The notes under the pieces were generated by a model. The model was given only the letters and a program-made list of their open reading frames with translations. It made no database searches and was not told where the DNA came from. A program made the position numbers and the translations under genes. From Thermogemmatispora carboxidivorans (GTDB lineage: Bacteria > Chloroflexota > Ktedonobacteria > Ktedonobacterales > Ktedonobacteraceae), in contig NZ_JNIM01000001.1 of the NCBI RefSeq assembly GCF_000702505.1, positions 4,686,327 through 4,750,326 of the forward strand: 64,000 bases of DNA, written 5' to 3'. Below are positions 4,542 through 61,196 of this stretch, one piece after another. How positions within the stretch are numbered: position 1 is the stretch's first letter; every line of letters starts with the position of its first letter.

Positions 4542-7500
4542 TCACTCATCACTCAGGCTGTCAAGAGCCATGCCGGGGGTACCGCTGCTGTGGCCGTTGC
4601 TGCCAGAGCTTCCACCCAGGCCAGCCCCCACGCCGGCCACGCTGGGCGCGCCCGTCAGGCGTTGCTGGACCTGTTGCTGGCGCGCTAGCTGTTCGCGGCG
4701 TCGCTGCAAGAAGCCGGAGCCAGCCGGAATGAGCTTGCCGATGATGACGTTCTCCTTGAGACCCACCAGGTGATCGGTCTGGCCCTGAATGGCCGCCTCG
4801 GTCAGGACGCGCGTGGTCTCCTGGAACGAGGCTGCTGCCAGGAAGCTGTCGGTGTTGAGCGAGGCCTTGGTGACGCCCAGGAGGACGGTCTGGGCGCGGG
4901 CCGGCTCGCCGCCCTCGGCCAGGACGCGCGCGTTGGTCTCAGCAAAGGCGAAGCGGTCGATCAGGTCGTTGGGCAGCATGTCGGTATCGCCTGGTTCCTC
5001 GACGCGCACGCGGCGCAACATCTGCCGGATGATGATCTCGATGTGCTTATCGTTGATGCGCACACCGGTGTTGCGGTAGATGCGCTGGACCTCTTTGACA
5101 AGGTACATCTGGACCGCTTCGCGCCCGAGGATGCGCAGGACATCCTGCGGGTCGAGATGGCCGCTGGTGATGGGCGTCCCGGCTTTGATGTACTGCCCCT
5201 GAGCGACGGCCAGGCTGCGGGCCGCTGGTACCGGATAGCTGCGCTCGTCGCGCTCCTCGGAGCGGATGGTCAGCACCCCGTTCGCGTTGAAGAGGACTTC
5301 GCCGCTGGTACGGGCACGCACTTCGCGCGGCTCGCTGCCGTTCTGCGGCGGCTCCAGGGCCAGCAGCTGATCCTTCTGGACCCGCTCGTGCTCGCTGACG
5401 AGGATCTCGGCCCCCGGCGGCAGGCGGTACTCGTCGAAGATGGTGTTGGTCGAGACGACGCGCACGGTGCGGCTGCCCGTGTTTTCGTCTTTGATGATCT
5501 CGACGACGCCATCGATCTCACTGATCTCCGCCTTATCTTTGGGGACGCGCGCCTCGAACAGCTCTTCGATGCGCGGTAGACCCTGGGTGATGTCGCCCTG
5601 GGCACCAGCGATACCGCCAGTGTGGAAGGTACGCATGGTCAGCTGCGTGCCCGGCTCGCCGATGGACTGGGCGGCGATGATGCCAACGGCCTGGCCCAGG
5701 CGCACCAGGCTGTTCTCCGCCAGGTCGCGGCCATAGCACTTGCGGCAGACGCCGCGGCGGGTCTGGCAGCCTAGCACGGAGCGGACGCGCACCTGCTTGA
5801 CGCCCGCCGCCACCAGGGCATCGGCAATGTCCTCGGTGATTTCGTCGCCGACCTCGATGAGGTGCTCGAAGCCAGGGATGGGCTCCAGCAGGATGCGCCC
5901 GGTGATGCGCTGGCGGATGTCGGGCAGCATCATCTCCTTGCTGTCCTCATCGGTGATGAGGATGCCTTCGGTGGTCTGACAATCCTCTTCGGTGACGATG
6001 ACGTCCTGGGCCACGTCGATCAGGCGCCGCGTCAGATAGCCCGACTCGGCGGTACGCAGTGCGGTGTCGGCCAGTCCTTTGCGCGCTCCGTGGCTGCTGA
6101 TAAAGTACTCGAGCACGCTCAGCCCTTCGCGGAAGTTGCCCCGAATGGGCACGTCGATGATCTTACCGGATGGGCTGGCCATCAGACCACGCATACCGGA
6201 GAGCTGACGGATCTGCTGGAAGCGGGCCTTGGTGGCGCCAGACTTGGCGATGGTGAAGATGGCACCGTAGGGGTCTAGCGTCTGCTCGACCATCTTGGTG
6301 ATGTTCTCGGTGACTTCGTTCCAGATGTCGATGGTCTGCTGGTATTTCTCGAAGTCGGTGATGAGACCCTCACGGTACTGCTCATCCAAAGCGGCGATCT
6401 TGGCGTCGGCTTTGGCCAGCTCCTCGGCTTTGCCTTCCGGTACCTTGATGTCACTGACGGCAATGGTAGCGCCAGCCTTGGTGGCGTAGGAGAAGCCGAG
6501 ACGCTTGATCTCGTCCGCCAGCTCGCAGGTCTTGACGCGCCCATACTCCTTGTAGCACTCGGAGATCAGCGCGCGCAGGTCATCCTTCCTCATCGGGTAG
6601 TTCTTGAAGCGCATGCGCTCGGGCAGCGATTCGTTGAAGATGATGCGCCCGACGGTGGTGGTAATGAGCTGGCGCTGCGCATACATGGTCGGCCCCGCCG
6701 GCGGCGGCTCATCGAAGATTTGCACACCATCCATGCGCACTTTGATGAGAGCCTGCAGGTCGATGACGCCGTGATGGTAGGCCAGCAGGGCCTCGGTCGG
6801 GTCGGTGAAGACGCGCCCCTCGCCCTTCTTGCCCGGACGATCCTGCGTCAGGTAGAAGCAGCCAAGAACCATGTCACCGGTGGCCCCAATGGATGGCTCG
6901 CCAGTGGCTGGCAGCAGCAGGTTGCGCGTGGACATCATGTACTGCCGCGCTTCGTCCTGGGCTTTCTCGGACAGCGGGACGTGGACGGCCATCTGGTCAC
7001 CATCGAAGTCGGCGTTGAAGGCCGAGCAGACCAGCGGATGCAATTGGATGGCGCTGCCTTCGACGAGCACGGCCTCGAAGGCTTGCAAGCCCAAACGGTG
7101 CAGGGTCGGCGCACGGTTGAGCAGGACGGGATGGTCCTTGATGACTTCCTCTAGAACATCCCAGACTTCGGGCCGGACACGCTCGACGAAACGCTTGGCG
7201 CTCTTGATGTTGTGCGCATCTCCACGCTCGACGAGCTTGCGCATGACGAAGGGCTTGAATAGCTCGAGCGCCATGCGCTTGGGCAGGCCACACTGGTGCA
7301 GCTTCAGCTCAGGGCCGACAACGATCACCGAGCGGCCAGAGTAGTCGACGCGCTTACCGAGCAGGTTCTGACGGAAACGGCCCTGCTTCCCCTTGAGCAT
7401 GTCAGAGAGGCTCTTGAGCTTGTGGTTACCCGAGCCAGCGACCGCTCGACCGCGGCGCCCGTTGTCGATGAGGGCATCGCAGGCCTCCTGCAGCATGCGC

Positions 7501-8888
7501 TTTTCGTTGCGAATGATGATCTCCGGCGCGCTCAGCTCCAGCAGCCTCTTGAGACGATTGTTGCGGTTGATGACGCGGCGATAGAGGTCGTTGAGGTCCG
7601 AGGTGGCGAAGCGCCCGCCGTCAAGCTGGACCATTGGACGCAGCTCGGGCGGCAGCACTGGCAGCACCGTCAGGATCATCCACTCGGGACGGTTGCCCGA
7701 CTTGCGGAAGGCTTCTACGACCTTGAGGCGCTTGGTGGCCTTCTTGCGCCGCTGGCCAATGGTCGAGCTGATTTCCTGACGCAGCTCCATCGCCAGTTTG
7801 TCGAGATCAATATCGGCGATTAGTTCGCGCACAGCCTCGGCACCCATGCCGGCGCGGAAGACGCTGCCGAAGGCCTCCTTCAGCTCGCGATAGCGATTCT
7901 CCTGGAGCAGGTCCATCTTTTTGAGGTTGACCAGGTCGCGGCGCAGCTGCTCCAGGCGATGGCGGCGGTCGGTGCGCTGCGATTCGAGCTGCGACTGCAA
8001 GAGGTCGATCTGGCCCTGGTAGTCAAGGTTGAGGCGCTCGGCCTCGCGCTCGCTCTCGGCGCGTACGGCCTCCAGGGCATGGCGGGCCTGCTCAGCAATA
8101 TCGTTGCGGCAGGTCTCGGCTACTTGCTCCAGCAGCTCGATATGCTTGAGGGTGACGACCTCGCCACGCGAGACGATGATCTGACCGGTCGGCTCGTAGA
8201 CGATATCGTCTTCCGCCGGCTTGCCACGCTGGGTGCGCAGCTCAGCCAGGGTCTCGCTCTCGGCCTGGCGAGCCCGTTCTAGATCACGCTCGCGCTCCTC
8301 TTGAATCTGGCGGATGCGGGCCGCCAGGCGGGCGCGCTCGTCCTGAATCTCGCTGTCGCGCTGCTCTTTGAGACTGTCGACGCGCTCGACAACCTCTTCC
8401 TCGGTCGTCTGCTGAAGATTGGCTAGCTCGCGATCCAGCTCCATCAGGGCCTTCTGGCGCGCTTCTTCGTCGATGTGGGTGACCACGTAGAGCGCAAAGT
8501 AGAGGATGCGCTCCAGGTTGCGCGGCGACAGATCGAGCAAGAGGCCAATGCGGCTGGGAATGCCCTTAAAGTACCAGATATGGCTGACCGGCGAAGCCAG
8601 CTCGATATGGCCCATGCGCTCGCGGCGCACCTTTGAGCGCGCGACCTCGACGCCACATTTATCGCAGACGATGCCCTTGAAACGGACGCGCTTGTATTTG
8701 CCACAATAGCACTCCCAGTCCTTGGTGGGGCCGAAGATACGCTCACAGAAGAGACCGTCCTTCTCTGGCCTGAGAGTGCGGTAATTGATGGTCTCCGGTT
8801 TCGTGACCTCGCCGTAGCTCCAGCTGCGAATCTGCTCGGGACTGGCGAGACTGATACGAATTGCGTTGAAATCGTTGACTTCGAGCAT
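4542..8888 (-). CDS. rpoC: DNA-directed RNA polymerase subunit beta-prime
   Basis: 1448 aa with N-terminal Zn-finger [23 protein letters not shown], the catalytic [12 protein letters not shown] motif, bridge helix and trigger-loop regions. A ~190-aa coiled-coil insertion follows the Zn finger, and the C-terminus has a Gly/Ser-rich tail. Confidence 0.97.
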
Positions 8889-9292
8889 GCTGCCTCCTGA
8901 TGGGAAAGGGGAAGGCCCCGGCCATCTCCTCGACGCGCTCTTGTTGTCTCTTCTCCTACCACTATTTTGCCGGCCTTGCCTTAGTGCGGGCTGCTCCGTC
9001 CGTCTTCTGCCGCTCTGGTTACTCCGCTCATCTCACTCACTTCACCCCGGTAGTTGACTCAGCCAGCTCTCTGGCCTGGAATGGAACCTGCCTTGTCTGA
9101 CCTGGACGTGGGCGCTGATGACAGGCAGGCACCAGCCAACTGGCAAGCAGCACTGAATATGCTGGTTCAGGCTTGCCGGCCAGAGAGCGAGCCGACAACG
9201 GCACAGCCCAAGACGGCAGGGGAACCGGAGGGAGTACTGCGACCGCTCGCCGTGCCGGTTGATTGATGGCACGGGCACCTTCTCCGGTTCCC

Positions 9293-12790
<3,498 letters not shown>

Positions 12791-18577: not shown

Positions 18578-19027
18578 GAGAATCTATGGTCTTTCCTTCC
18601 TGCCTGCTGGCTGAAATGGAACGGTCCTTGCCTGCTTGCTTGTATGTGTCAAGTGCCACCGGTTGCGTCTCGGGTTCTTGTAGTATGATAGAGCAAGGGT
18701 GGTATTCTGGCAAGCGTCCGCCCACTGTATCGCTCCTAAAGAGAGCATCCTCGCACGGCCCTGCAGCACTCCGTCCCCATAAGTAGGAACCTCAACGGAC
18801 GCCGCGCTGGTGCAGAAATTCTATACTACTTGTTGTTGAGCAGATGAGACAGGACAAGCTGGCAACCGCATCTACACGACCCCTCGCTGCGCGCAGAGGG
18901 GCATACACGTCATCGTATCTTGGGGAGAGCTATGCTTGAGCACTGCTGCGCCCGCCCCTCACCGTTGCCAGTTTTCCGGCTTGAGGCATGCTGATTCTTG
19001 CTTATAGAACAAAGAGGAGTTCTTTTC

Positions 19028-22383: not shown

Positions 22384-22661
22384 GACTGACTGCCGTCTCT
22401 CTTTTTTTCCTGGGGTAGCAGGGCTGCCGTTTTCTTCCATCCTGCCTGCATGTGCAGGCTCTCCGAGGGCGAGCACTCAGGAGGCTGCCCATCACGCTGG
22501 CCAGCGCCTCCTCTTGGTCCGGTCGCCAGCGATGGGCAGCGCTTCGATCTCTGGCCGGGACACGCCACCCATCCAGGATAGCAGGGACGAGCGCGCAACC
22601 GCAACGCAGTCCACAAAAGGGTCAGCCAGCGGCTGCGCTCTGTTGGTAGGCTCCGCTGCGG

Positions 22662-23147
22662 CTAGTGTTCACTGGGGCCACCGGTCAGGAGGTTGATCGC
22701 GTGCGGCAGCACGGGCAGGATCGTCTCCAGGCACTCCTTGACGGCTTTGGGACTGCCCGGCAGGTTCACAATGAGCGTCTGGCCGCGCGTGCCAGCGATT
22801 CCGCGCGAGAGCATGCCGAAGGGCGTATGTTGCAGGCTGGCGGCACGCATGGCCTCGGCCAGGCCAGGGGCCTCGCGCTCGATGACGGCCTTTGTTGCCT
22901 CGGGCGTGACATCGCGAGGGGCCAGGCCGGTGCCGCCGGTCGTCAAGATCAGGTTCAGCCGTTGCTCATCGCACCAGGAGCGCAGCACGGCCTCAATCTG
23001 ATCCCGCTCATCGGGAACAATAGCGGTGGCGCTCACCACTGCCTGTGGTAGCTGGGCCACGAGAGAGCGAATGGTCTCGCCACTCGTATCCTGGCGTGTC
23101 CCACGGGCGGCGCCGTCACTGATGGTCAGCACGCCAACCGTAATCAT
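22662..23147 (-). CDS. Molybdenum cofactor biosynthesis protein, MogA/MoaB family
   Basis: [24 protein letters not shown]...[20 protein letters not shown]...GLAEAM...[15 protein letters not shown] matches MoCF_biosynth domain signatures (GGTG, PGSP). Confidence 0.85.
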
Positions 23148-23156
23148 CGTAGCTCT

Positions 23157-23975
23157 TCACCCCCTGGGGGCCAACGCGCGCATAATGGCTCCGATCTGCC
23201 GACGTGGCCCATAGAGCCAAACCGTGTAGGTTTCTCCCTGCTCTTCTTCTTCAACAATGCACTGCATCTCACGTGCCAGACGCCGGGCGATGTCGAACAT
23301 CTGGCCGCGCTGAGCGACGCTGCGACTTTGCGTGCGCAGGGCAATCTTGCCGAGCCGCTCATCTTGACTCAGGCTGGCATTGATCAGGAGGGCTAGCTGA
23401 TCCAGGCCAAAGATCACCTGCAAGGGAGGGATCTCCTCGCCCACGCCTCGGACAGCAGCAGCTGCTGCGAGAGAAGCAGCCATCTCCTCCTCGCCTGGCG
23501 CTTCAGACGCTTCGACTTCATCCGCTTTCTCCCTGATCTCCGCTTCCTGTCCTGCCAGTGAGGCCGGGGCCTCTTCCAGCTCCTTCTGCCGCTGGGCGAC
23601 GCGCCCGTAGACCTCGTGCAATTTGGCCTCGATCAGCTCGCGCCCTTCTGGCGGCACGTTGTCGCGAGGATGGACATAGGCCAGCAGATGGTTGGGCGGA
23701 TCGGAGTAGATGAACGGTCGCCGCGCTAAAGCTCGTCGCCCACAAGAAGGGCAGGTGACTACGTTGAGGCGACCCGCCAGGACGGCATAGCGCAGCTGCG
23801 GGTCACGCGCGGCGTTGACATATTCATAGACCTGGCATTCAAAGCCATGTCCACAGCGACAGGTCAGCTTGTAGCTGGCTGTCCGCGATGCTAATTGCGA
23901 CATAGATGATAGCGCTTCGAAAATGACATCCTCTCCAACGAAATGAACCACACGAGCACGAAACATCTCTATCAT
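23157..23975 (-). CDS. CpXC-domain zinc-ribbon protein with acidic coiled-coil C-terminal region
   Basis: ATG at 23975 (MIEMFRARVVHF...). CRCGHGFEC and TCPSCGRRA Cys pairs give the C-x-C ... CPxCG pattern. The C-terminal half is Glu/Ala-rich. It lies 112 bp downstream of the NurA-like gene on the same strand. Confidence 0.55.
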   Translation of the reverse strand: MIEMFRARVVHFVGEDVIFEALSSMSQLASRTASYKLTCRCGHGFECQVYEYVNAARDPQLRYAVLAGRLNVVTCPSCGRRALARRPFIYSDPPNHLLAYVHPRDNVPPEGRELIEAKLHEVYGRVAQRQKELEEAPASLAGQEAEIREKADEVEASEAPGEEEMAASLAAAAAVRGVGEEIPPLQVIFGLDQLALLINASLSQDERLGKIALRTQSRSVAQRGQMFDIARRLAREMQCIVEEEEQGETYTVWLYGPRRQIGAIMRALAPRG

Positions 23976-24087
23976 ATCACATCGAGGCCGGCCCCCAGGG
24001 CCAGGGCAAGCCCACAAGAGACCCGTCACAAGCCCTATCTTCTCCTCTGGCGCCCTGTCGCCAGCGCCCACTCGGCCCCGCGCCACC

Positions 24088-25359
24088 TCAGCGCCGACGG
24101 CTTTTACTGAGGGCCTTGGAGGAGAAGGTGAAGTTCAAGCCCTGACTCTCGATGAATTGTTGGAAGTGCGCATAGAACTCGCTGCGATCCTGGAGGGTGA
24201 TGACGGCAACAGCGTCGGCAGTCTCGATGGCATAGGGATAGCCCTGACCTCCGGCGATGATCTCGGCTCGCACGACATCAGTAACAGGATCAAGCAGTCC
24301 CTCGTCAACGATCCAGCGCGGGAACTCCAGGCGGGCTGGTGGGCGCTGACTGACGGTCTGTAGATAGCAAAAGGCGATCCGCTCGCGGTAGGGACCGTAG
24401 TGATCGAGGACGTCACCGCGGGCACAGATCATGGCCGGGGTGCGATCGCCCCAACGCAGGCGCCCCTGCCACAGTAGGGCGTCGTGAATGCGCTTGGTCT
24501 CGCGCAGCAAGGGCTGAGGCTGCATGGTATCCAGGCGTAAGAGCATGGTGATGATATCGCGCGCATAGCTGGTGTCGATGTAGCCGATGAGGGGCACGCG
24601 GAAACGCTCCGAAGCCTGCAGCAGGGAAACGGCCCCGGCGATGTAGCGCTCGCGGTAGGGACTGGGCATTGTCAGGGCAAAGGAGACGACCAGGGAGCCA
24701 TCGAAGAAGACCACGGGACTGTGGGCCGGTTCGTCGGGCCGGCGTTGACGGGCCAGCTGTTCCATCTGACTACAGAGGGTCTCGACTTCGAGCTGGAAGC
24801 GGCGCAGCGAGACCTGCAGTTCGGAGTAGGGGTAGCCGCTGGGATCGACGCTTTCGCCGGAAGCCTCTTCCAGGATTTCATCGGGTGCCAGCACTTCGAG
24901 GCGTACGTCTTTGACGTAGGGACGCCCGCGCTGGTGAGGATTGACAAAGAGACCAACCTGGACCAGAGCCACGGGAATCGAGGCGTCGCGCCAGGGCTGA
25001 AGCTGGCTGCCATCCACGGCCAGAGTCGTAATCCCCTCGATACACTCCGCCCACTGCCGCGCCTGCTCGTGATTGGCAAAGCGCTCGGCAAAGCGAAAGA
25101 CGGGGCCGTGATAGTCCTCCTGAGTGGCCGTGACAAGCCAGCGATCGAACTCGATCGTTGGGCGTGCTCCCGCCGGCGGCAAACCCTCCCCGCCAGGCGG
25201 TAGGTGCTGTTCTAGCTGGGCGCTTGAGCGGTAGCGACGATAGAGGGTCTCGAGAGCATGGCGATAGGCGCCCAGCTGATCGCTGTAGGTCCCACCATAG
25301 AGCGTGAACTGGTCCCGTTTGCTGGCCAGGGCGGCTAGTAGCTTCCCTCTATGGAGCAT
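24088..25359 (-). CDS. Putative NurA-like nuclease-domain protein (family assignment tentative)
   Basis: ATG at 25359 preceded by GGGAGGAGG, overlapping the upstream Rad50-like stop by 11 nt. It contains AVDGSQLQPW and VFFDGSLVVSF, (I/V)DGS motifs of the kind reported for NurA catalytic Asp. It lacks the calcineurin-like phosphoesterase motifs (GDxxD, GNH[DE]) of Mre11/SbcD. Confidence 0.45.
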   Translation of the reverse strand: MLHRGKLLAALASKRDQFTLYGGTYSDQLGAYRHALETLYRRYRSSAQLEQHLPPGGEGLPPAGARPTIEFDRWLVTATQEDYHGPVFRFAERFANHEQARQWAECIEGITTLAVDGSQLQPWRDASIPVALVQVGLFVNPHQRGRPYVKDVRLEVLAPDEILEEASGESVDPSGYPYSELQVSLRRFQLEVETLCSQMEQLARQRRPDEPAHSPVVFFDGSLVVSFALTMPSPYRERYIAGAVSLLQASERFRVPLIGYIDTSYARDIITMLLRLDTMQPQPLLRETKRIHDALLWQGRLRWGDRTPAMICARGDVLDHYGPYRERIAFCYLQTVSQRPPARLEFPRWIVDEGLLDPVTDVVRAEIIAGGQGYPYAIETADAVAVITLQDRSEFYAHFQQFIESQGLNFTFSSKALSKSRRR

Positions 25360-28300
25360 GGGCGTGTTCCTCCTCCCGCTCAAAGGCAGCCTGCCATTCC
25401 TCGTCACTGACCAGGAGCGTCTCACCGTTTTCTTTACGCAGGCGGATCAGGCTGTCCAGTCCCTGCTCAAAGGTATCGTCATGGCTGATGACGATGAGCT
25501 GATCAAAACCGCGGACACGCCGAATCTGCTCGGCGAGATTGGTGCGCCGGGTACTGTCCATGTTCTGTGTTGGTTCATCGAAGAAGGCAATGGTCAGGTT
25601 GGAGAGCTTCTTGAGCAGCGCCAGGCGTACAGCCAGGGCAGCGCTCATCTGCTCGCCACCGCTGAGCTGGGCAAAGGTGCGCGTGGCGCTGCGGCTGCGG
25701 ACGACAATCTCGTAGTCATCCTGCCAGCTCAGTTGCGCGCTGCGATCGCCCATGATCTCCCCAAAGATGCGATTGGCCTCGGCGGAGATCTCAGCCAGGC
25801 GGGCACGCAGGATCTGCGGAGCGGCTTCTTTGAGCAGTTGGCGGAAGAGATCGATCGTGCCGCTCAAGTCTTCAAGGGTGCGATATTCCTGCTGTGCGGC
25901 CTCCAGGGCGAGCAGCAGGGCTTCCGCCTGGCCAATGCGCGCCTCCAGTTCCGCAATGCGACCGCGCGTATGCTGGAGAGCAGTGGTGTAGCCCTTGAGG
26001 TCGGCACGCAGCTTCTTGATCTCTTCGTCGGTCCGTTGGAAGGCGGCTTCATCAAAAGCGATCTGGGCCTGGCGATAGCTGCGCTCGGCCTGCTGCAATT
26101 CCTGCTCTGCACCCTGATAGTCGGCAGTTGCCCGTTCGTATGATTGCTGACGCTGAGGCAACTGAAGCGCTCCTTGTTCGTGAGCCAGATAGGTCTGATA
26201 GCCGACCTGAGCCTGCTGGCGCCGGTGCTCTTGCTCGGCCAGGCGCCCATCAAGGTCCTGATAGGCCGCCAGGCGCTCGGCCAGCGCCTGTAGCTCTTGC
26301 TCCAGCCCGGCTTCTTGCCGGAGCAACGCAGCGAGTTGCTCGCGCAGGCCAGGCTCTCGCTCAATGGTAGTCAAAAGGCCGCGAATCTGGCCCGCCGGGT
26401 CATCCAGCTCTCTCAGCTGGGCCTCGACCTCCTTGAGGCGCTCACGGACCCCTTGCAGCTGCTGGACCTGCTGCCGACGCTCTACAAGCTGTTCTTCTAG
26501 TTGCTTGAGCAGCTCCTCAAGCTGTTCCACCTTCGCTCGGAGAACCGGCAAGGCCCGCACGCGCTGATCTGCCAGCTCGCTGGCGCGCCGTGCCTGCTCT
26601 GCCTGAGCGATCTCTTGACCGAGGTTCTGTAGCTCATCCAGGTCCTGGCGGAGGTCATTGACATCGCGCTGTAAGCGCAACAGTTCACCAGCCAGTTGGC
26701 GCAGGCGCTCCGCACACTCGCTCTGCTGGGCTCGATAGTGGCCCAGGCGCTCGTATTCCTGCGCATAGACGCTGAGTCTGGCGATCTGCTCCTCCAGCTC
26801 CTGCTGTTGCTGGCGCAGGTCGGCCAGCTGGGCCTCGTCACTGGCAATGAGCTGCTCGAAATAGGATTCAAGGCTGGCCAGACCTTTCTGGCGAATATTG
26901 AGGCATGGCTCATGGAGCAGAGGGCAGAGGCCGCCGCGCGAACGGCTGTAGGACTCGCGATAGCCATCGATGTTGCCTTCCAGACGATAGCGCCGGGCCG
27001 TCAGCTGGGCTTGCTCTTCGCGCAAAGTGGGCAGGCTTTCCACCTCCTGGCGGTGGGATTCGACCGCGGCTATGGTCTCCTCCAGGTTCCGCAGGCGCTC
27101 AGCGGTTCTGGCACGCTCCTCTTCCTTCTGACGCAGGGTCTCTAGCTTCTCTTGCAGCTGAAGCTGCTTCTGACTGCGCTCCGAGAGGCGAGCCTGCAGC
27201 TGGGTCAGGAGGGCAATGCGTTCAGGAAGCTGGCCAGCCAGCTCCTGCAGTGGCTCGATCTCACGGGCCTGATGCTGCAGTTCTTGTAATCGCTTCAGTT
27301 GCTGTTCTTGTTGACGGCGCAGGCTCCGCCCCTCCTCGACCAGCTCATCATAGCGCTGGACTTGCTGGCGCAGCTCTTCGCGCCGGCGTTCCAGCTCGCG
27401 CTGACGGTCGGCCAGCGGCGATAGCTCAATCACACGCTGGCGAGCCTGCTCGATCTCCTTGAGGGCGGCCTCTACATGGGCTTTGTTGGCGCTCAGGCCG
27501 GCCTGGCGACGCTGAAGAGCAGCCTGTTGCTGGCGCAGGGCGTTCCGCTGGCGCTCGGCCTGGCGCAGCTCCTGCAGAGTGGCCTCCGCCTCCTGATAGG
27601 CCAGATAGGCGGCGCGATTGGCCTCGACCTGGGCCTGGGCCTGGCGCGCCAGCGCCAGCTCCTGCTCGCACTGGCGCAGCCGCTGGCGGGCAGCCTCGCG
27701 TCTCAGCTGGGCCTGCTCGAAGCGGTGGCGCAAATTCAGCAGCTCGTCGCGCTGGCGCTGCAAGAGGGCATAGTGGTTCTCCAGCTCCTCTAATCGGCGC
27801 GTGCCATTGGCGATCAGCTCGGTCTGGCGCTGCTCCTCCTGGCGGGCCTGCTCCCGCTCCTGTCGCCACTGGCCCAGGTCGCGTGTCTCAAAGCTGAGGC
27901 GCTGAATCTCCTGCTGTTGCTGCTGCATCTGATCCTTATAGTAATTCTGGACCTCGCGCAAATAATCGGAGGCGAGGCGGTAGTCCTCGATCTGCAGCAG
28001 CTCATCGAAGGTCTTCTTGCGCTTGGCCGGAGCCTCCAGAAAGATCGCCGTGAAGGTGCCCTGCGGCACGCCGAGGGCGTCCTGAAAGAGCGTCGGCAGG
28101 GGGCGCTCGCGCTCAATGCCGAACAGCTCATGTAGCTTATCGAGCACATCGGTGCGCTGCTCCAGGTGATAGTCGGCTTCGCAATCGTAGAGCTGCCAGT
28201 AAGCGCCGGCGCCACAGCGGCGCTCGACCATATAGCGTCGCTCGTCGTTGCCCAGCAGGTGGACGCGAATCAGGCCATATTTTTCGCCCTCGCGCACAAA

Positions 28301-28471
28301 CTGGCTATGCTTATAGGGCAAGGCATCGAAGAGGGCAAAGCCAATGGCCTCGACCAGGGTGGTCTTACCAGCCCCATTGGCTCCCTGAATAGCTGTCGTC
28401 CCCCGTCGGAACTCGACGGCCAGATGACGATAGCTCTTGATATTCTCCAGCTCAAGACGAGTAATCAACAT
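25349..28471 (-). CDS. Rad50/SbcC-like SMC-type ABC ATPase
   Basis: N-terminal Walker A (IQGANGAGKTTL). A ~700-aa Q/E/R/L-rich coiled coil has a central CPLLHEPC Cys pair (hook-like). The C-terminal signature is SGGEQ, with Walker B IAFFDEPT and H-loop VISHD. Confidence 0.85.
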   Translation of the reverse strand: MLITRLELENIKSYRHLAVEFRRGTTAIQGANGAGKTTLVEAIGFALFDALPYKHSQFVREGEKYGLIRVHLLGNDERRYMVERRCGAGAYWQLYDCEADYHLEQRTDVLDKLHELFGIERERPLPTLFQDALGVPQGTFTAIFLEAPAKRKKTFDELLQIEDYRLASDYLREVQNYYKDQMQQQQQEIQRLSFETRDLGQWRQEREQARQEEQRQTELIANGTRRLEELENHYALLQRQRDELLNLRHRFEQAQLRREAARQRLRQCEQELALARQAQAQVEANRAAYLAYQEAEATLQELRQAERQRNALRQQQAALQRRQAGLSANKAHVEAALKEIEQARQRVIELSPLADRQRELERRREELRQQVQRYDELVEEGRSLRRQQEQQLKRLQELQHQAREIEPLQELAGQLPERIALLTQLQARLSERSQKQLQLQEKLETLRQKEEERARTAERLRNLEETIAAVESHRQEVESLPTLREEQAQLTARRYRLEGNIDGYRESYSRSRGGLCPLLHEPCLNIRQKGLASLESYFEQLIASDEAQLADLRQQQQELEEQIARLSVYAQEYERLGHYRAQQSECAERLRQLAGELLRLQRDVNDLRQDLDELQNLGQEIAQAEQARRASELADQRVRALPVLRAKVEQLEELLKQLEEQLVERRQQVQQLQGVRERLKEVEAQLRELDDPAGQIRGLLTTIEREPGLREQLAALLRQEAGLEQELQALAERLAAYQDLDGRLAEQEHRRQQAQVGYQTYLAHEQGALQLPQRQQSYERATADYQGAEQELQQAERSYRQAQIAFDEAAFQRTDEEIKKLRADLKGYTTALQHTRGRIAELEARIGQAEALLLALEAAQQEYRTLEDLSGTIDLFRQLLKEAAPQILRARLAEISAEANRIFGEIMGDRSAQLSWQDDYEIVVRSRSATRTFAQLSGGEQMSAALAVRLALLKKLSNLTIAFFDEPTQNMDSTRRTNLAEQIRRVRGFDQLIVISHDDTFEQGLDSLIRLRKENGETLLVSDEEWQAAFEREEEHAHAP

Positions 28472-28806
28472 GCCACACTAGCCTTCTGCACTGCACTACA
28501 CTGCCCTGCTCCCTGCGGGGAGTCTGCAGCGATCTTTCCTCTGGCTCCCCTCTGTGGACGAGGCGCACCATTCACCCTCCTGCACTGGTGGGCAGCGGCG
28601 AGAGGCGAAGGCAGCCCAAAGAGGACGCAAAAACCCTGCTCAGGAACAAGGCTATGCTTGTTGTTTCTTCTCTGCGAGGCCGAAAGCGGTAGCTCCCAGG
28701 CGCATTATACCATGCCCGCGCCTGAAACACAGCATCGCCTTACCGCGTGTCAGGGGAAGGAAGACGAGAGAAGAGAAACAGGACAGCACAGACAGAGGAG
28801 TCTTTC

Positions 28807-49885: not shown

Positions 49886-50887
49886 TCAGATCCCCCAGCG
49901 CAGGGCTGGAGTCAGCACAGGGGCATCCCAGTAGCGCAGCATCTCGTCATCGACGCGCAGCAGCGTAATAGAGCAGCCAGCCATCTCTAACGAGGTGATA
50001 TAGCTGCCTACCAGGGAACGGGCGATTGTAATGTTGCGCCCCTTGAGAATACGCGCCAGCTCGCGCGCGACAATGTAGAGTTCGATTAAAGGTGTGCCCC
50101 CCATGCCATTGACAAAGGCCAGGACGCGCTCGCCGGCCTTCAGGCCGAGGTCCTCGATAATGGGATTGGCCAGCATCTCGACGATGTCGGCTGCTGGGGC
50201 CAGTTTGACGCGCCGGCGCCCGGGTTCGCCGTGGATGCCAATACCGATCTCCATCTCGTCCTCGCCCAGCTCAAAGGTGGGCGAACCCTTGGCGGGAACG
50301 GTGCAGGAGGTCAGGGCCATGCCCATGCTGCGCCCCTGCTCGTTGACGCGCTTGGCCAGGGCCGCCACCTGCTCCAACGAGGCCCCGCTCTCAGCGAGAC
50401 CCCCGACGATCTTCTCCAGGAGAACGGTGACACCGACTCCGCGCCGACCGGCGGTGTAGAGGCTGTCCTCAACAGCTACGTCATCATTGGTGATGACACT
50501 GGCGACTTCGATGCCTTCGGCCTGGGCTAGCTCCGCCGCCATTTCAAAGTTGAGGACGTCACCCGTGTAGTTCTTGATAATCTGGAAGACGCCAGCCCCG
50601 CCATTGACGGCCCGCATGGCTGCGAGAATCTGGTCGGGAACTGGTGAAGTGAAGATCGCGCCAGGACAGGCGGCATCAAGCATGCCTCTCCCCACAAATC
50701 CCCCATGCATTGGCTCATGACCGCTGCCCCCTCCCGAGACAACGCCTACTTTGCCCCGCACCGGTGCGTCTGCCCGCACAACGATCTGATTCTCCAGATC
50801 GACGCGGATCAGCTCGGGATGCATGGCAGCCATGCCTTCTAGCGCTTCTTTGACGACCGTCTCTGGACTGTTGATGAGCTTCTTCAT
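49886..50887 (-). CDS. dhaK: Dihydroxyacetone kinase DHA-binding subunit
   Basis: ATG near 50887 preceded by [19 protein letters not shown]...[38 protein letters not shown]... is the Dak1 signature with the active-site His. Confidence 0.92.
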
Positions 50888-51158
50888 GCTGCCTCCTTTT
50901 CCCAGAAGTCGAGGGCCGCTTCGTTGCCCTCCTCTGACCTCGACAGCGACTCCGCTGCTCCCTCCTTCCCCACGTCGCCCACCGCTCTCCGCTCCGCTTG
51001 AGAGCCGCTCACCGGTCTGCCATTGCCTGCGGAGACCTTCCTCCGCCGCCAATGGCCTTCTTCAGCACATCTGCTCGGCCAGGCAGGCGCCCACGCCCGC
51101 CTGCCCCCCACTCGCTAGAGATGAGAGCCTCTGGCTTTGCCTGTCTACTCTTTAGACA

Positions 51159-51174
51159 TGCAAGATTCGTGCCA
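51159..51174 (-). promoter_or_regulatory. Sigma-54 (-24/-12) promoter for the dhaK-dhaL-dhaM-ptsH operon
   Basis: Plus strand TGCAAGATTCGTGCCA reads on the minus strand as TGGCAC-GAATC-TTGCA, an exact match to the TGGCAC-N5-TTGCW consensus. It lies ~270 bp upstream of dhaK, with a sigma-54 activator gene adjacent. Confidence 0.65.
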
Positions 51175-51252
51175 GCTTTCCCCGGCGCGTGGGAAGAGGC
51201 TCCCGACAGGTCACCGCACACCCACCCCACGCTCTGCCATCGCTTCAGGAGC

Positions 51253-51321
51253 GTTGCATCATTGCAACAGCTCGCTGGTTCAGTTTCATTATTGAAACAT
51301 GCGTTGTTTCACTATGGCAAC
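51253..51321. promoter_or_regulatory. Three related inverted-repeat sites (GTTGCA-tcat-TGCAAC; GTTTCA-ttat-TGAAAC; GTTTCA-ctat-GGCAAC), candidate upstream activating sequences for the adjacent enhancer-binding protein
   Basis: Read directly: 51253-51268, 51283-51298, 51306-51321. Consensus GTT(G/T)CA-N4-TG(C/A)AAC, 80-160 bp upstream of the sigma-54 promoter. Confidence 0.45.
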
Positions 51322-53480
51322 ACCTCACCCGGGCCAGAGGCCGGGAAGGAGGAGGCGCCGGGAATGGGGCGCAAGCCGTAGCGCACCATCTTGCGCCACA
51401 GGGTCGTCCGGCTAATGCCGAGCAGGCGCGCTGCTTCGCCTGGGTGGCCATGACAGTGCTCCAGCGCTTGCAGAATGGCATTGGCTTCTGTTGAGCGACT
51501 GCGTTCTTTGAGTGGCTGGCGCCCTGGTAGAGCTGGCTGGGGTTGCCACTCCTTTGCGCCTGGCTGATCCTGGCCCATCTGCCGGACAAGAGACGGGACC
51601 TCGGGCGAGGCTGGGGCTGAAGATGTACTCGCCAGCTCAGTCTCGGCAGCCTGGCGGATCTCCGGCGGTAGATCCTGCACGGTAATAGTATCGGAGCGCG
51701 CCAGGTAGGTGAGGCGCTCCAGGAGGTTTTCCAGCTCGCGCACGTTGCCCGGCCAGCTATAGCGCTCCATCAGGGCCAGAGCCTCTGGTGTGATGCCAAA
51801 GGAGCGGCCCAGGGTCCGGCTCTGTCGCTGCAGAAAGTGCTCAACCAGCAGGGGCAGATCTTCCAGGCGCTGGCGTAACGATGGGATATGAATAGAGAGG
51901 ACATTGAGGCGATAATAGAGATCGGAGCGAAAGGTTCCGCGCCGCACCTCTTCACGGAGATCCTTATGGGTGGCGGCGATGATGCGCACGTCGACGGGTA
52001 TGACGCGCTGTCCTCCAATGCGCACAATGGTGCGCGTTTCAATGGCCCGCAGCAGGGTGGTCTGCAGGTCCAGGGGCATGTCGCCGATCTCATCGAGGAA
52101 GAGGGTGCCACCGTGGGCCTGCTCGAACTTGCCCGAGCGCCCCTGGCGGTCTGCGCCGGTGAAGGAGCCGCCTTCGTAGCCAAAGAGTTCAGTGTTGATC
52201 AGCTCGCGCGGAATGGCGGCGCAGTTGATGGCCACGAAAGGGCCGTCGGCTCGGGGGCTGTTGTTATGGATGCTCTGGGCAAAGATCTCTTTGCCAACGC
52301 CGGTCTCACCGTGCAAGAGAACCGTGGAGTTGCTATGCGAGGCCAGGCGTGCCAGACGCAGGGCTTCTTGCAGCGGGGCGCTGCTCCCTACAACGTTGGC
52401 AAAGGTCAGACGCGCCCGCGCGCCGGTCATTCTGTTGACGAGCTTTTGCACGCGCTCGATGCTGCGCAGGATCAGCACGAAGCCATCGGAGATCAGTGGG
52501 CCCCCCGATGTACTGCTACCGCCCACCGTCAGGCGCCCCAGGACCGGCTCGGGTTCGCCCGCAGTGAGGGCGATGGGCTTGAGCGAGCAGAGGCAGGTGA
52601 CACGGCCCCGCGCTGTTTCAAAGACGACCTCTTCCTCGTTCAGGGGCTGCTGACAGGCGAGCGCTTGCTGGAGTAGTGGGGGCAGCGGCAGGACGTCGCG
52701 CAGGCGCCGCCCCATCACGCGCGCTGGCACCAGTCCAAGCAGGGTGCCGGCAGGCCCGTTCATCTGGGAGATGACGCCATCGCGCCGCAGCAGGAGAATG
52801 CCCTCTGGCAAGCTCTGGAGAATAATTTTGAGCTCCGCGAGCAGCTCGTTGGCGTTGCCGAGCCAGACCTGCATCTGAAGCTGACCGCTGATGACCTGGG
52901 CTGCGGCGGCCACCATCCCGAGGGTGTGAGGATGGCTGCGCTCACAGGGACCCGCTACCGCCAGAACTCCAATCGCTTGCCCGAGGGGATCGTGCACCGG
53001 TGCGGCAGCGGTGTAGAGAGCATGCAGGGCGGAGCGGTAATGCATGGCTCCCTCTAGCTGCATGGGGAATGACTCTTGTAGGGCCAGGGCCAGGGCATTC
53101 GCCCCTTGTTGCTCTTCATCCCACAGTGTTCCCACACGCATCCCCAATGGTTCCAACCGGGCGCGCACTTCAGGATCACCGATCAGCTCGATGATGCGCG
53201 CCTCGGCGTTGGCAAAGAGGACCAGCGAGTCCGATCCTTCGATGAATTGATAGAGGTCCTCCATCGCCGGACGAATGAGGGCCAGCAGGCGGCGTGAGAG
53301 CGGTTGCGGGGCCGCGGGGCCGGAGTCTGGCGCTGGTGGCTGGCCACAGGGATCAAGGCCCAGCGCCGCGCAACGCCGCCAGGACTGCGCCAGAGCCGGC
53401 GGCAGCAGCTCCTCGCGTAGACGCCCCTGCAGAACAAATTGTTCCCAGATCGCGCGATAATCCTGGACGCTGCTGAGCAT
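51312..53480 (-). CDS. Sigma-54-dependent transcriptional activator (sensory N-terminal domains + AAA+ sigma-54 interaction domain + Fis-type HTH); DhaR/AcoR-like
   Basis: AAA+ Walker A VLLHGETGVGKE. GAFTGA-type motif in ELFGYEGGSFTGA. Walker B/arginine finger region GTLFLDEIGDMPLDLQTTLLRAIE. C-terminal HTH AARLLGISRTTLWRKM. Confidence 0.88.
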   Translation of the reverse strand: MLSSVQDYRAIWEQFVLQGRLREELLPPALAQSWRRCAALGLDPCGQPPAPDSGPAAPQPLSRRLLALIRPAMEDLYQFIEGSDSLVLFANAEARIIELIGDPEVRARLEPLGMRVGTLWDEEQQGANALALALQESFPMQLEGAMHYRSALHALYTAAAPVHDPLGQAIGVLAVAGPCERSHPHTLGMVAAAAQVISGQLQMQVWLGNANELLAELKIILQSLPEGILLLRRDGVISQMNGPAGTLLGLVPARVMGRRLRDVLPLPPLLQQALACQQPLNEEEVVFETARGRVTCLCSLKPIALTAGEPEPVLGRLTVGGSSTSGGPLISDGFVLILRSIERVQKLVNRMTGARARLTFANVVGSSAPLQEALRLARLASHSNSTVLLHGETGVGKEIFAQSIHNNSPRADGPFVAINCAAIPRELINTELFGYEGGSFTGADRQGRSGKFEQAHGGTLFLDEIGDMPLDLQTTLLRAIETRTIVRIGGQRVIPVDVRIIAATHKDLREEVRRGTFRSDLYYRLNVLSIHIPSLRQRLEDLPLLVEHFLQRQSRTLGRSFGITPEALALMERYSWPGNVRELENLLERLTYLARSDTITVQDLPPEIRQAAETELASTSSAPASPEVPSLVRQMGQDQPGAKEWQPQPALPGRQPLKERSRSTEANAILQALEHCHGHPGEAARLLGISRTTLWRKMVRYGLRPIPGASSFPASGPGEVLP

Positions 53481-61111: not shown

Positions 61112-61183
61112 TCCTCGATAGCTCAACGGTAGAGCAACCGGCTGTTAACCGGTGGGTTGCAGGTTCGAATCCTGCTCGAGGAG
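61112..61183 (+). tRNA. tRNA-Asn (anticodon GTT)
   Basis: Cloverleaf read manually: acceptor TCCTCGA/TCGAGGA, D-arm GCTC-AACGGTA-GAGC, anticodon arm ACCGG-CTGTTAA-CCGGT (GTT), T-arm GCAGG-TTCGAAT-CCTGC, discriminator G. No encoded CCA. Confidence 0.85.
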
Positions 61184-61196
61184 CCTCACAAGAAGT

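Follow-up and report, generated by a model that had tools for sequence, protein, structure and literature searches.

A translationally coupled rad50-nurA gene pair in Thermogemmatispora carboxidivorans, the probable core of a dispersed Mre11-Rad50-NurA(-HerA) DNA-end resection system

Here we describe a locus on the minus strand (23157-28471) of a 64-kb stretch of the Thermogemmatispora carboxidivorans chromosome, referred to throughout as the window, where open reading frame (ORF) calling found three ORFs, all in the same direction, that encode a Rad50-type ATPase, a NurA-type nuclease and a CpXC zinc-ribbon protein (Table 1). The first two genes are translationally coupled: the TAG stop codon of rad50 (25351-25349) falls inside nurA, whose ATG lies at 25359-25357, which gives an overlap of 11 nucleotides (nt) including the stop codon, and a Shine-Dalgarno site, GGGAGGAGG (25377-25369), stands 9 nt 5' of the nurA ATG. 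Judged from this arrangement, the overlap together with the strong Shine-Dalgarno site should ensure that Rad50 and NurA are co-expressed, and the coupling that had been read from the sequence in an earlier, search-free annotation of this stretch (hereafter the original prediction) is thereby borne out.

The ATPase matches the Pfam models SMC_N (8.9e-24), AAA_23 and SbcC_Walker_B and has the split ABC head of its class, with motifs in both the N- and the C-terminal halves of the protein; all head motifs listed in the original prediction, as well as the cysteine pair, were located, and the assignment to the Rad50/SbcC type stands. Residues 190-860 consist to 72% of L, Q, E, R and A, with proline and glycine scarce, and this composition, in a protein whose length is like that of its orthologues, fits a predicted long coiled coil. 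The best NCBIfam models are those of archaeal Rad50 (5.4e-57), and a PDB sequence search gave its best matches (2e-27) to the heads of Rad50 from M. jannaschii and P. furiosus. The cysteines at the apex are spaced as C-x6-C within a motif, CP[LF]Lx[EQ]xC, that is kept in every Ktedonobacterial Rad50 orthologue; the same spacing is seen in the Thermobaculum and Rubrobacter orthologues (CPLNRDDC, CPLERSDC), and the Anaerolineae orthologues (902 amino acids, aa) have a canonical CPVC at the apex position. The histidine of CPLLHEPC is not conserved among the orthologues. The C-x6-C apex looks like a variant, putative zinc hook.

The second protein is a nuclease of the NurA family (PF09376, 4.6e-34; 118.5 bits against a cut-off of 21; model positions 2-254 of 254) with no Metallophos match in Pfam, which agrees with its original assignment as NurA and not Mre11/SbcD; its length is 423 aa and not the 424 aa first given. 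Searches of PDB sequences with the window NurA alone or with a profile of 27 sequences returned no solved NurA, only noise, so that it is the Pfam profile and the fold that identify the protein as NurA. A structure model (AF2) built on an alignment of 27 diverse homologues, with a predicted local distance difference test score (pLDDT) of 92.9, had as its top three Foldseek matches in the PDB the NurA structures of T. kodakarensis, D. radiodurans and P. furiosus (9x1n_G, 7f6d_G, 3tal_A); the next matches were EndoV and Argonaute PIWI, and the TM-scores were modest (0.33-0.45). In the predicted structure an RNase H/PIWI-like fold is thus confirmed for the window NurA. The closest NurA proteins are those of T. 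tikiterensis and T. aurantia (95-96% identity), and a 95%-identical NurA is named 'DNA double-strand break repair nuclease NurA' by NCBI. Identity across Ktedonobacterial genera is 69-72%, which points to purifying selection, and throughout the Ktedonobacteria (69-96%) the pair is vertically inherited.

The two (I/V)DGS-type motifs of the nuclease that were pointed out in the original prediction (AVDGSQ and FFDGSL) coincide with the predicted catalytic strands that carry D116 and D220. The 27-homologue alignment shows no variation at D116, S118, E191 and D293 and hardly any at D220, and in the model D116 is placed on strand 113-121, E191 on helix 181-206 and D220 on strand 217-221. The active site of P. 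furiosus NurA comprises Asp51, Glu105 and Asp126 (PMC3300031), and the layout of D116, E191 and D220 appears to match it, with a residue mapping that we infer without superposition. Candidates for a fourth ligand, in this family a His, Asp or Glu of the C-terminal part, are E379 and D382 of the ETAD motif, or D293. In the P. furiosus enzyme the conserved C-terminus of one subunit reaches into the active site of its partner (PMC3300031); by analogy, the basic tail of the window NurA, in which K415 and K419 are invariant, may be its counterpart. This tail is conserved clade-wide as SRKxxSKxxRR, with or without herA in the operon.

Table 1. Coordinates of the features described in the text, in positions of the window
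Feature	Position	Strand	Length or residues	Details and basis
rad50 gene, SMC-like ABC ATPase	25349-28471	-	1040 aa	ORF calling and Pfam
Rad50 Walker A	28358-28384	-	aa 30-38	GANGAGKTT
Rad50 Q-loop		-	aa 134-138	GVPQG
Rad50 apex cysteine pair	26903-26926	-	aa 516-523	CPLLHEPC, at the midpoint of the protein
Rad50 ABC signature	25649-25663	-	aa 937-941	SGGEQ
Rad50 Walker B and D-loop	25568-25591	-	aa 961-968	IAFFDEPT
Rad50 H-loop	25478-25492	-	aa 994-998	VISHD
rad50/nurA junction	25349-25377	-		Shine-Dalgarno site, ATG and stop codon, read from the sequence
nurA gene, nuclease of predicted RNase H/PIWI fold	24088-25359	-	423 aa	Pfam, AF2 model and Foldseek
NurA predicted catalytic core	24691-25020	-		AVD116GSQ (25003-25020), E191, FFD220GSL (24691-24708)
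NurA conserved C-terminal elements	24091-24243	-		GYPYAIETAD (24214-24243), basic tail SSKALSKSRRR (24091-24123)
Intergenic gap, nurA to CpXC gene	23904-24087	-	184 nt	
CpXC zinc-ribbon protein gene	23157-23903	-	248 aa	Pfam; start set by alignment
MogA-like MoCF_biosynth gene	22662-23147	-		Begins 9 nt past the CpXC stop codon
Candidate extended -10 element, TGGTATAAT	28704-28712	-		About 233 nt 5' of the rad50 ATG; found by eye

The pair was placed among its relatives through the NurA family, which has 880 representatives at 50% clustering. Scanning one genome per species with a profile made from 11 closer sequences gave at least 591 loci, of which 79 were fetched and surveyed with phmmer. 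In 65 of these the NurA gene is preceded, on its own strand, by a Rad50 ORF, and tblastn added one further Rad50-NurA locus, behind a run of N (L071). Among the 13 remaining loci, most have an upstream flank too short to judge (e.g. L015, L024, L030, L039, L043, L060). Two metagenome-assembled genomes (MAGs) labelled Heliobacteriaceae/Heliomicrobium (L072, 8004-9209; L076, 3178-4386) encode an orthologous NurA of 44-46% identity, and neither phmmer nor tblastn found a Rad50 upstream of it despite enough flank. The two genes overlap by an identical 11 nt in 23 loci and by 1 nt in three, and in most others they are separated by no more than 155 nt.

Outside the Ktedonobacteria the pair is part of a longer operon. 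In Thermobaculum terrenum (L085) the order is Metallophos/Mre11 (435 aa), SMC_N/Rad50 (1021 aa), NurA (396 aa), DUF8166 (201 aa) and DUF87/HerA (560 aa), adjoining dnaA. The phmmer survey and Pfam show that the same mre11-rad50-nurA-DUF8166-herA gene set is shared by a Rubrobacter MAG (L073), an assembly of a Chloroflexi bacterium (L077) and an Anaerolineae MAG (L079); partial sets surround the pair in other Anaerolineae MAGs (L074, L075, L080), a Chloroflexia MAG (L068) and a Thermobaculum MAG (L070). The same five-gene order recurs on a 224-kb megaplasmid of Natrinema zhouii (NZ_CP084885.1, 183086-190958; L086). Mre11 adjoins the orthologous Rad50 in L073, L077, L079, T. terrenum and Natrinema. 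Against the operon orthologues the window proteins are 32-37% (Rad50, full length) and 44-52% (NurA) identical. Family membership, orthology, synteny and coupling of the pair are matters of observation. Since the same gene set forms the five-gene operons of relatives, the pairing is not an undescribed one, as had been supposed; in T. terrenum, Rubrobacter, the Anaerolineae and Natrinema it largely is the widespread rad50-mre11 locus, the very outcome that the original prediction had set against its own view. The 1-nt overlap occurs inside complete operons (L073, L074, L079), and such tight junctions argue that the coupling is ancestral and not the mark of a new Rad50-NurA complex. No experimental study of the five-gene operon was found in the literature, where it is known from annotated genomes.

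Some details of these operons may be added. The Natrinema cassette reads mre11, SMC ATPase, nurA, hypothetical protein and ATP-binding (HerA-like) protein, is preceded by a DEAD/DEAH helicase and another ATP-binding protein, and encodes a NurA that is 34% identical to that of the window. The DUF8166-type protein (about 200 aa) always lies between nurA and herA (L085, 9394-9999; L073, 9195-9815; L079, 11246-11848; L086, 9103-9768); its DUF8166/PF26500 label comes from precomputed Pfam, and our own Pfam search of the protein gave no match. In L079 an OLD-family ATPase (AAA_15 plus OLD-like TOPRIM, 606 aa; 9202-11022), a defence-type gene within a repair operon, is inserted between nurA and DUF8166-herA.

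Our data suggest, with a probability that we put at roughly 75%, that the coupled pair is the core of an Mre11-Rad50-NurA(-HerA) DNA-end resection system vertically inherited in Chloroflexota; on this reading the locus represents a known repair cluster in a fragmented form particular to this lineage, and not a new machine. Of the two functions originally proposed, end resection at double-strand breaks is the better one, and the idea that it is carried out by a new apparatus is not supported. The biochemical activities, which for the NurA family comprise an Mn2+-dependent 5'-3' exonuclease and an endonuclease for single-stranded DNA, and the repair role itself we infer from the proteins studied in archaea and Deinococcus. 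The ancestral state would have been the five-gene operon, with rad50 and nurA already translationally coupled; in the Ktedonobacteria this operon would have been split, mre11 becoming a stand-alone gene elsewhere, herA and DUF8166 becoming unlinked and perhaps lost, and rad50-nurA being kept. A Rad50 dimer would bind and tether DNA ends by means of its ATP-driven heads, long coiled coil and C-x6-C cysteine-pair hook, Mre11 supplied in trans would open the end with the first cuts, and a NurA dimer of RNase H-fold, bearing a two-metal D-E-D site, would remove the 5' strand to leave a 3' tail for recombination.

The archaeal herA-mre11-rad50-nurA cluster (Sulfolobus, Pyrococcus, Thermococcus) comprises the same four protein families, and Constantinesco et al. 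reportedly placed rad50 directly beside nurA in it in 2004. The window Rad50 heads are closest to archaeal Rad50, and NurA has the same fold and, on the mapping given above, apparently the same D-E-D residues. The window differs in that it keeps rad50-nurA only, with mre11 and herA not in the 64 kb, in its C-x6-C instead of CxxC hook, in a NurA that lacks a sequence-level match to the solved NurAs, singly or as the 27-sequence profile, and in its host, a mesophilic to thermophilic bacterium. In archaea rad50, mre11, nurA and herA are clustered and co-transcribed (PMC2288612). The five-gene operon (Thermobaculum terrenum, Rubrobacter, Anaerolineae, Caldilineae and the Natrinema megaplasmid) has orthologous Rad50 and NurA proteins and an equally tight junction, with the C-x6-C hook shared by Thermobaculum and Rubrobacter, whereas the Ktedonobacterial loci are without flanking mre11, DUF8166 and herA, encode a NurA that is about 25 aa longer, and add either the CpXC gene downstream or, in deep branches, a TPR protein gene between rad50 and nurA. 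The nurA-herA genes of Deinococcus-Thermus (drNurA-HerA, Thermus HepA) encode the same NurA fold, D. radiodurans NurA being the second-best fold match, and a nurA-herA-sbcD-sbcC cluster has been reported from Oceanithermus (PMC5448004); in these bacteria, however, NurA is coupled to HerA and not to Rad50, it belongs to another NurA subfamily with no sequence-level match to the window protein, and the gene order differs. SbcCD of the Escherichia coli type likewise combines an SMC-like ATPase, a coiled coil, which in the window protein is predicted, and a cysteine hook for the processing of DNA ends, but its partner is the SbcD phosphoesterase and not NurA, and the window ATPase reaches 53.5 bits against the sbcc model (TIGR00618), whose cut-off is 478.5.

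These comparisons settle the annotation of the pair: its genes belong to a known repair system and do not make up a new defence module. They also show that the archaeal-type cassette mre11-rad50-nurA-DUF8166-herA is widespread in Chloroflexota, with further examples in one Rubrobacter MAG and on a megaplasmid of haloarchaea; according to the literature, bacterial NurA-HerA is limited to a small number of bacteria, Deinococcus-Thermus among them (PMC9960219). No representative of the cassette has been studied, and its NurA has no sequence-level match among solved structures. The Ktedonobacteria amount to a natural experiment in which the coupling of rad50 to nurA alone persists and mre11 and herA are dispersed or vanish, and if HerA is truly gone, they would provide a direct test of whether NurA acts without a motor and contacts Rad50.

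The fate of the missing genes was followed in the Ktedonobacteria, where only rad50-nurA is still linked in all 66 loci (L002-L067). A phmmer search of the six-frame translation of the window with seven queries found no Mre11 or HerA homologue (all E > 0.2); the original statement that HerA is missing from the locus is upheld, and that on Mre11/SbcD holds for the window and fails for the Ktedonobacterales, which carry stand-alone orthologous Mre11. A search with the Mre11 of deep-branching Ktedonobacterales MAGs gave many Ktedonobacterales orthologues (57-92% identity, annotated SbcD). In two genomic contexts the Ktedonobacterales mre11 stands alone, with no rad50 or herA adjoining, and in three deep-branching Ktedonobacterales MAGs (L050, L051, L053) the orthologous mre11 lies a few kb downstream of the pair on the opposite strand. 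In one of the two stand-alone contexts, that of another Ktedonobacterales genome (L083, 8001-9326), mre11 is situated between rpoB and a Dak1/Dak2/PTS/sigma-54 activator cluster; the same rpoB and Dak/sigma-54 landmarks bracket rad50-nurA in the window (9293-12790, 49886-53480), which is without mre11. Another deep-branching Ktedonobacterales group (L054, L056-L061, L067) has a TPR protein of 500-670 aa between rad50 and nurA (e.g. L057, 6320-7819), and in L054 this interval holds a SLATT_3/SLATT_1 two-transmembrane effector-type protein as well (4818-6821, 7011-7970).

Several points weigh against assigning the pair to the known resection system. Every Rad50 NCBIfam score of the ATPase lies far under the equivalog cut-off, the best being 193 bits versus 700, and these sub-cut-off scores indicate a divergent Rad50 clade; the C-x6-C apex, moreover, departs from the strict CxxC zinc-hook motif. 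No HerA or DUF8166 was found within ±8 kb in the 66 Ktedonobacterial loci, and a HerA search with a Thermobaculum-type query (from L070) returned no Ktedonobacterial name among its best 120 matches (at least 54% identity), the named ones being from Thermobaculum, Anaerolineae, Caldilineaceae and unclassified Chloroflexota. As HerA was not found at the Ktedonobacterial loci, NurA may there work without the canonical motor, its partner in a dimer-hexamer complex, unlike in the classical mechanism. The role of NurA-HerA in bacteria is in itself disputed, since deletion mutants of Deinococcus and Thermus display modest or even improved resistance (PMC9960219). The action of Mre11 in trans in Thermogemmatispora, finally, would be an extrapolation from other Ktedonobacterales. 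Searches of the literature on HerA in Ktedonobacter or NurA in Chloroflexi found nothing relevant.

These points lead to an alternative in which HerA and DUF8166 are truly lost and NurA cooperates directly with Rad50, whose ATPase would take the place of HerA in supplying DNA to NurA or positioning it there; the stand-alone Mre11 might or might not take part. Such a machine would explain why only rad50 and nurA stayed translationally coupled: this is the sole linkage in the 66 Ktedonobacterial loci, 23 of which have the identical 11-nt overlap, the surroundings of those loci and the best 120 HerA matches are as described above, and the constraint on NurA (69-72% identity across genera) exceeds that on Rad50 (48-49%). 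Yet the best 120 HerA matches end at 54% identity, so that Ktedonobacterial orthologues could fall below, and rad50-nurA coupling already exists in operons that bear herA. Experiments on other organisms speak in the same sense: immunoprecipitation of Sulfolobus Rad50 recovered Mre11 and HerA, not NurA (PMC2288612), and archaeal and Deinococcus NurA need HerA for activity (PMC3326311, PMC9960219). We consider this alternative unlikely on balance, and the same low expectation attaches to its specific form, a complex of C-x6-C Rad50 and NurA that, with stand-alone Mre11 and perhaps CpXC, would resect ends without a hexameric translocase, its NurA being Rad50-dependent. If this holds, a NurA that functions independently of HerA would be known for the first time.

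The original prediction had also considered an anti-phage or anti-plasmid module in which the SMC-like ATPase is the sensor and the nuclease the effector, following the logic of Lamassu, Wadjet or Gabija, with CpXC as adaptor or inhibitor. As in Lamassu, an SMC-like ATPase gene stands next to a nuclease gene, and the ATPase matches the PADLOC models LmuB (7e-35) and mad3 (2e-33); these matches, however, cover the generic SMC head only and are weaker than those to the Rad50 models (5e-57), JetC reaches merely 8e-6, and the GajA matches span aa 1-51 only. PADLOC gave nothing for NurA, CpXC, Mre11 and DUF8166, and for the T. terrenum operon proteins it gave generic SMC-head and HerA matches only. 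No partner of a known system was found beside the ATPase (LmuA or LmuC; JetA, JetB or JetD; GajB), and NurA is no known Lamassu effector. Defence-type genes do lie within the cluster of some relatives (the OLD-family ATPase of L079 and the SLATT protein of L054) and the five-gene cassette is carried by a haloarchaeal megaplasmid, but no relatives were found on viral contigs or bacterial plasmids, all four matches of the plasmid search being haloarchaeal megaplasmids. A survey of the neighbouring genes found no defence island in the 64-kb window, where housekeeping genes surround the pair, and the pair is syntenic throughout the Ktedonobacteria at high identity, unlike patchy defence genes. The housekeeping context, the vertical inheritance and the lack of a PADLOC match for NurA, with only generic matches for the ATPase, led us to reject the defence reading, which we regard as highly improbable. 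It is also improbable that CpXC is a true third subunit, that is, a zinc-ribbon adaptor for DNA ends or for Rad50/NurA that was gained when Mre11 and HerA left the operon. In 34 Ktedonobacterial loci the gene follows nurA in the same orientation, and 22 of these have it no more than 500 nt away; its product is 54-57% identical across genera with an invariant cysteine quartet and C-terminal domain, and no terminator-like site separates it from nurA. In the other 12 of these loci, however, the distance is 1.2-6.4 kb and other genes intervene, about 14 core Ktedonobacterial loci and all deep-branching ones have no CpXC gene within 8 kb, and it was not found in the surveyed operons of other phyla; in the window, moreover, it is not coupled to nurA and is tighter to mogA. 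Gene order of this kind is explained equally well by inheritance, with which the linkage appears to fit at least as well as with shared function, and because CpXC is linked in the Ktedonobacteria only and lies beyond a 184-nt gap, a function shared with rad50-nurA is unproven. Conservation of the neighbourhood, as originally proposed for examination, is thus found for rad50-nurA across relatives, and is loose and confined to the Ktedonobacteria for CpXC.

The CpXC protein was correctly recognized in the original prediction (PF14353, 3.4e-17; 63 bits, cut-off 25.4). Its start is the ATG at 23903 (MSQLASR...), as the N-terminus MS(R/Q)... is conserved in 34 homologues, and a 309-aa ORF with a GTG start is not the CpXC gene; with this start the gene begins 184 nt past the nurA stop codon and is uncoupled from nurA. 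In the protein an N-terminal CxC...CxxC region is followed by an acidic linker and then by a C-terminal domain that is conserved, and its two cysteine pairs, C15-x-C17 and C51-xx-C54, are invariant in the alignment. A profile search found no relative of CpXC in the PDB, and its single-sequence structure model is poor (pLDDT 51).

A promoter and terminator scan of the window found no terminator-like or promoter-like site in the gap between nurA and the CpXC gene, and CpXC and mogA are probably on the same transcript as rad50-nurA, with the MogA-like gene probably the last of the transcription unit that it shares with CpXC. The sole terminator-like hairpin nearby (22623-22635) lies 3' of the MogA-like gene; the counts of the scan equal shuffle expectation, with none in excess, so that this hairpin is a weak hint. 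Upstream of rad50, 275 nt (28472-28746) contain no convincing gene and hold the candidate extended -10 element TGGTATAAT, which is a perfect match but has no -35 element and was not flagged by the promoter scan; its distance from the rad50 ATG would imply a long leader.

The genes of the window otherwise belong to the core chromosome (rpoB/rpoC, ResB, M29 aminopeptidase, PSP1, Band_7, cytochrome bd, DAHP synthase) and include the Dak/sigma-54 cluster. Rfam and tRNA scans of the window found nothing besides one tRNA, an unrelated tRNA-Asn (61112-61185). At 18578-18997 the window has a 420-nt gap only, at the position where a close Thermogemmatispora MAG (L001) carries an RRXRR-domain gene (PF14239, 16257-17135) between ResB and the M29 peptidase.

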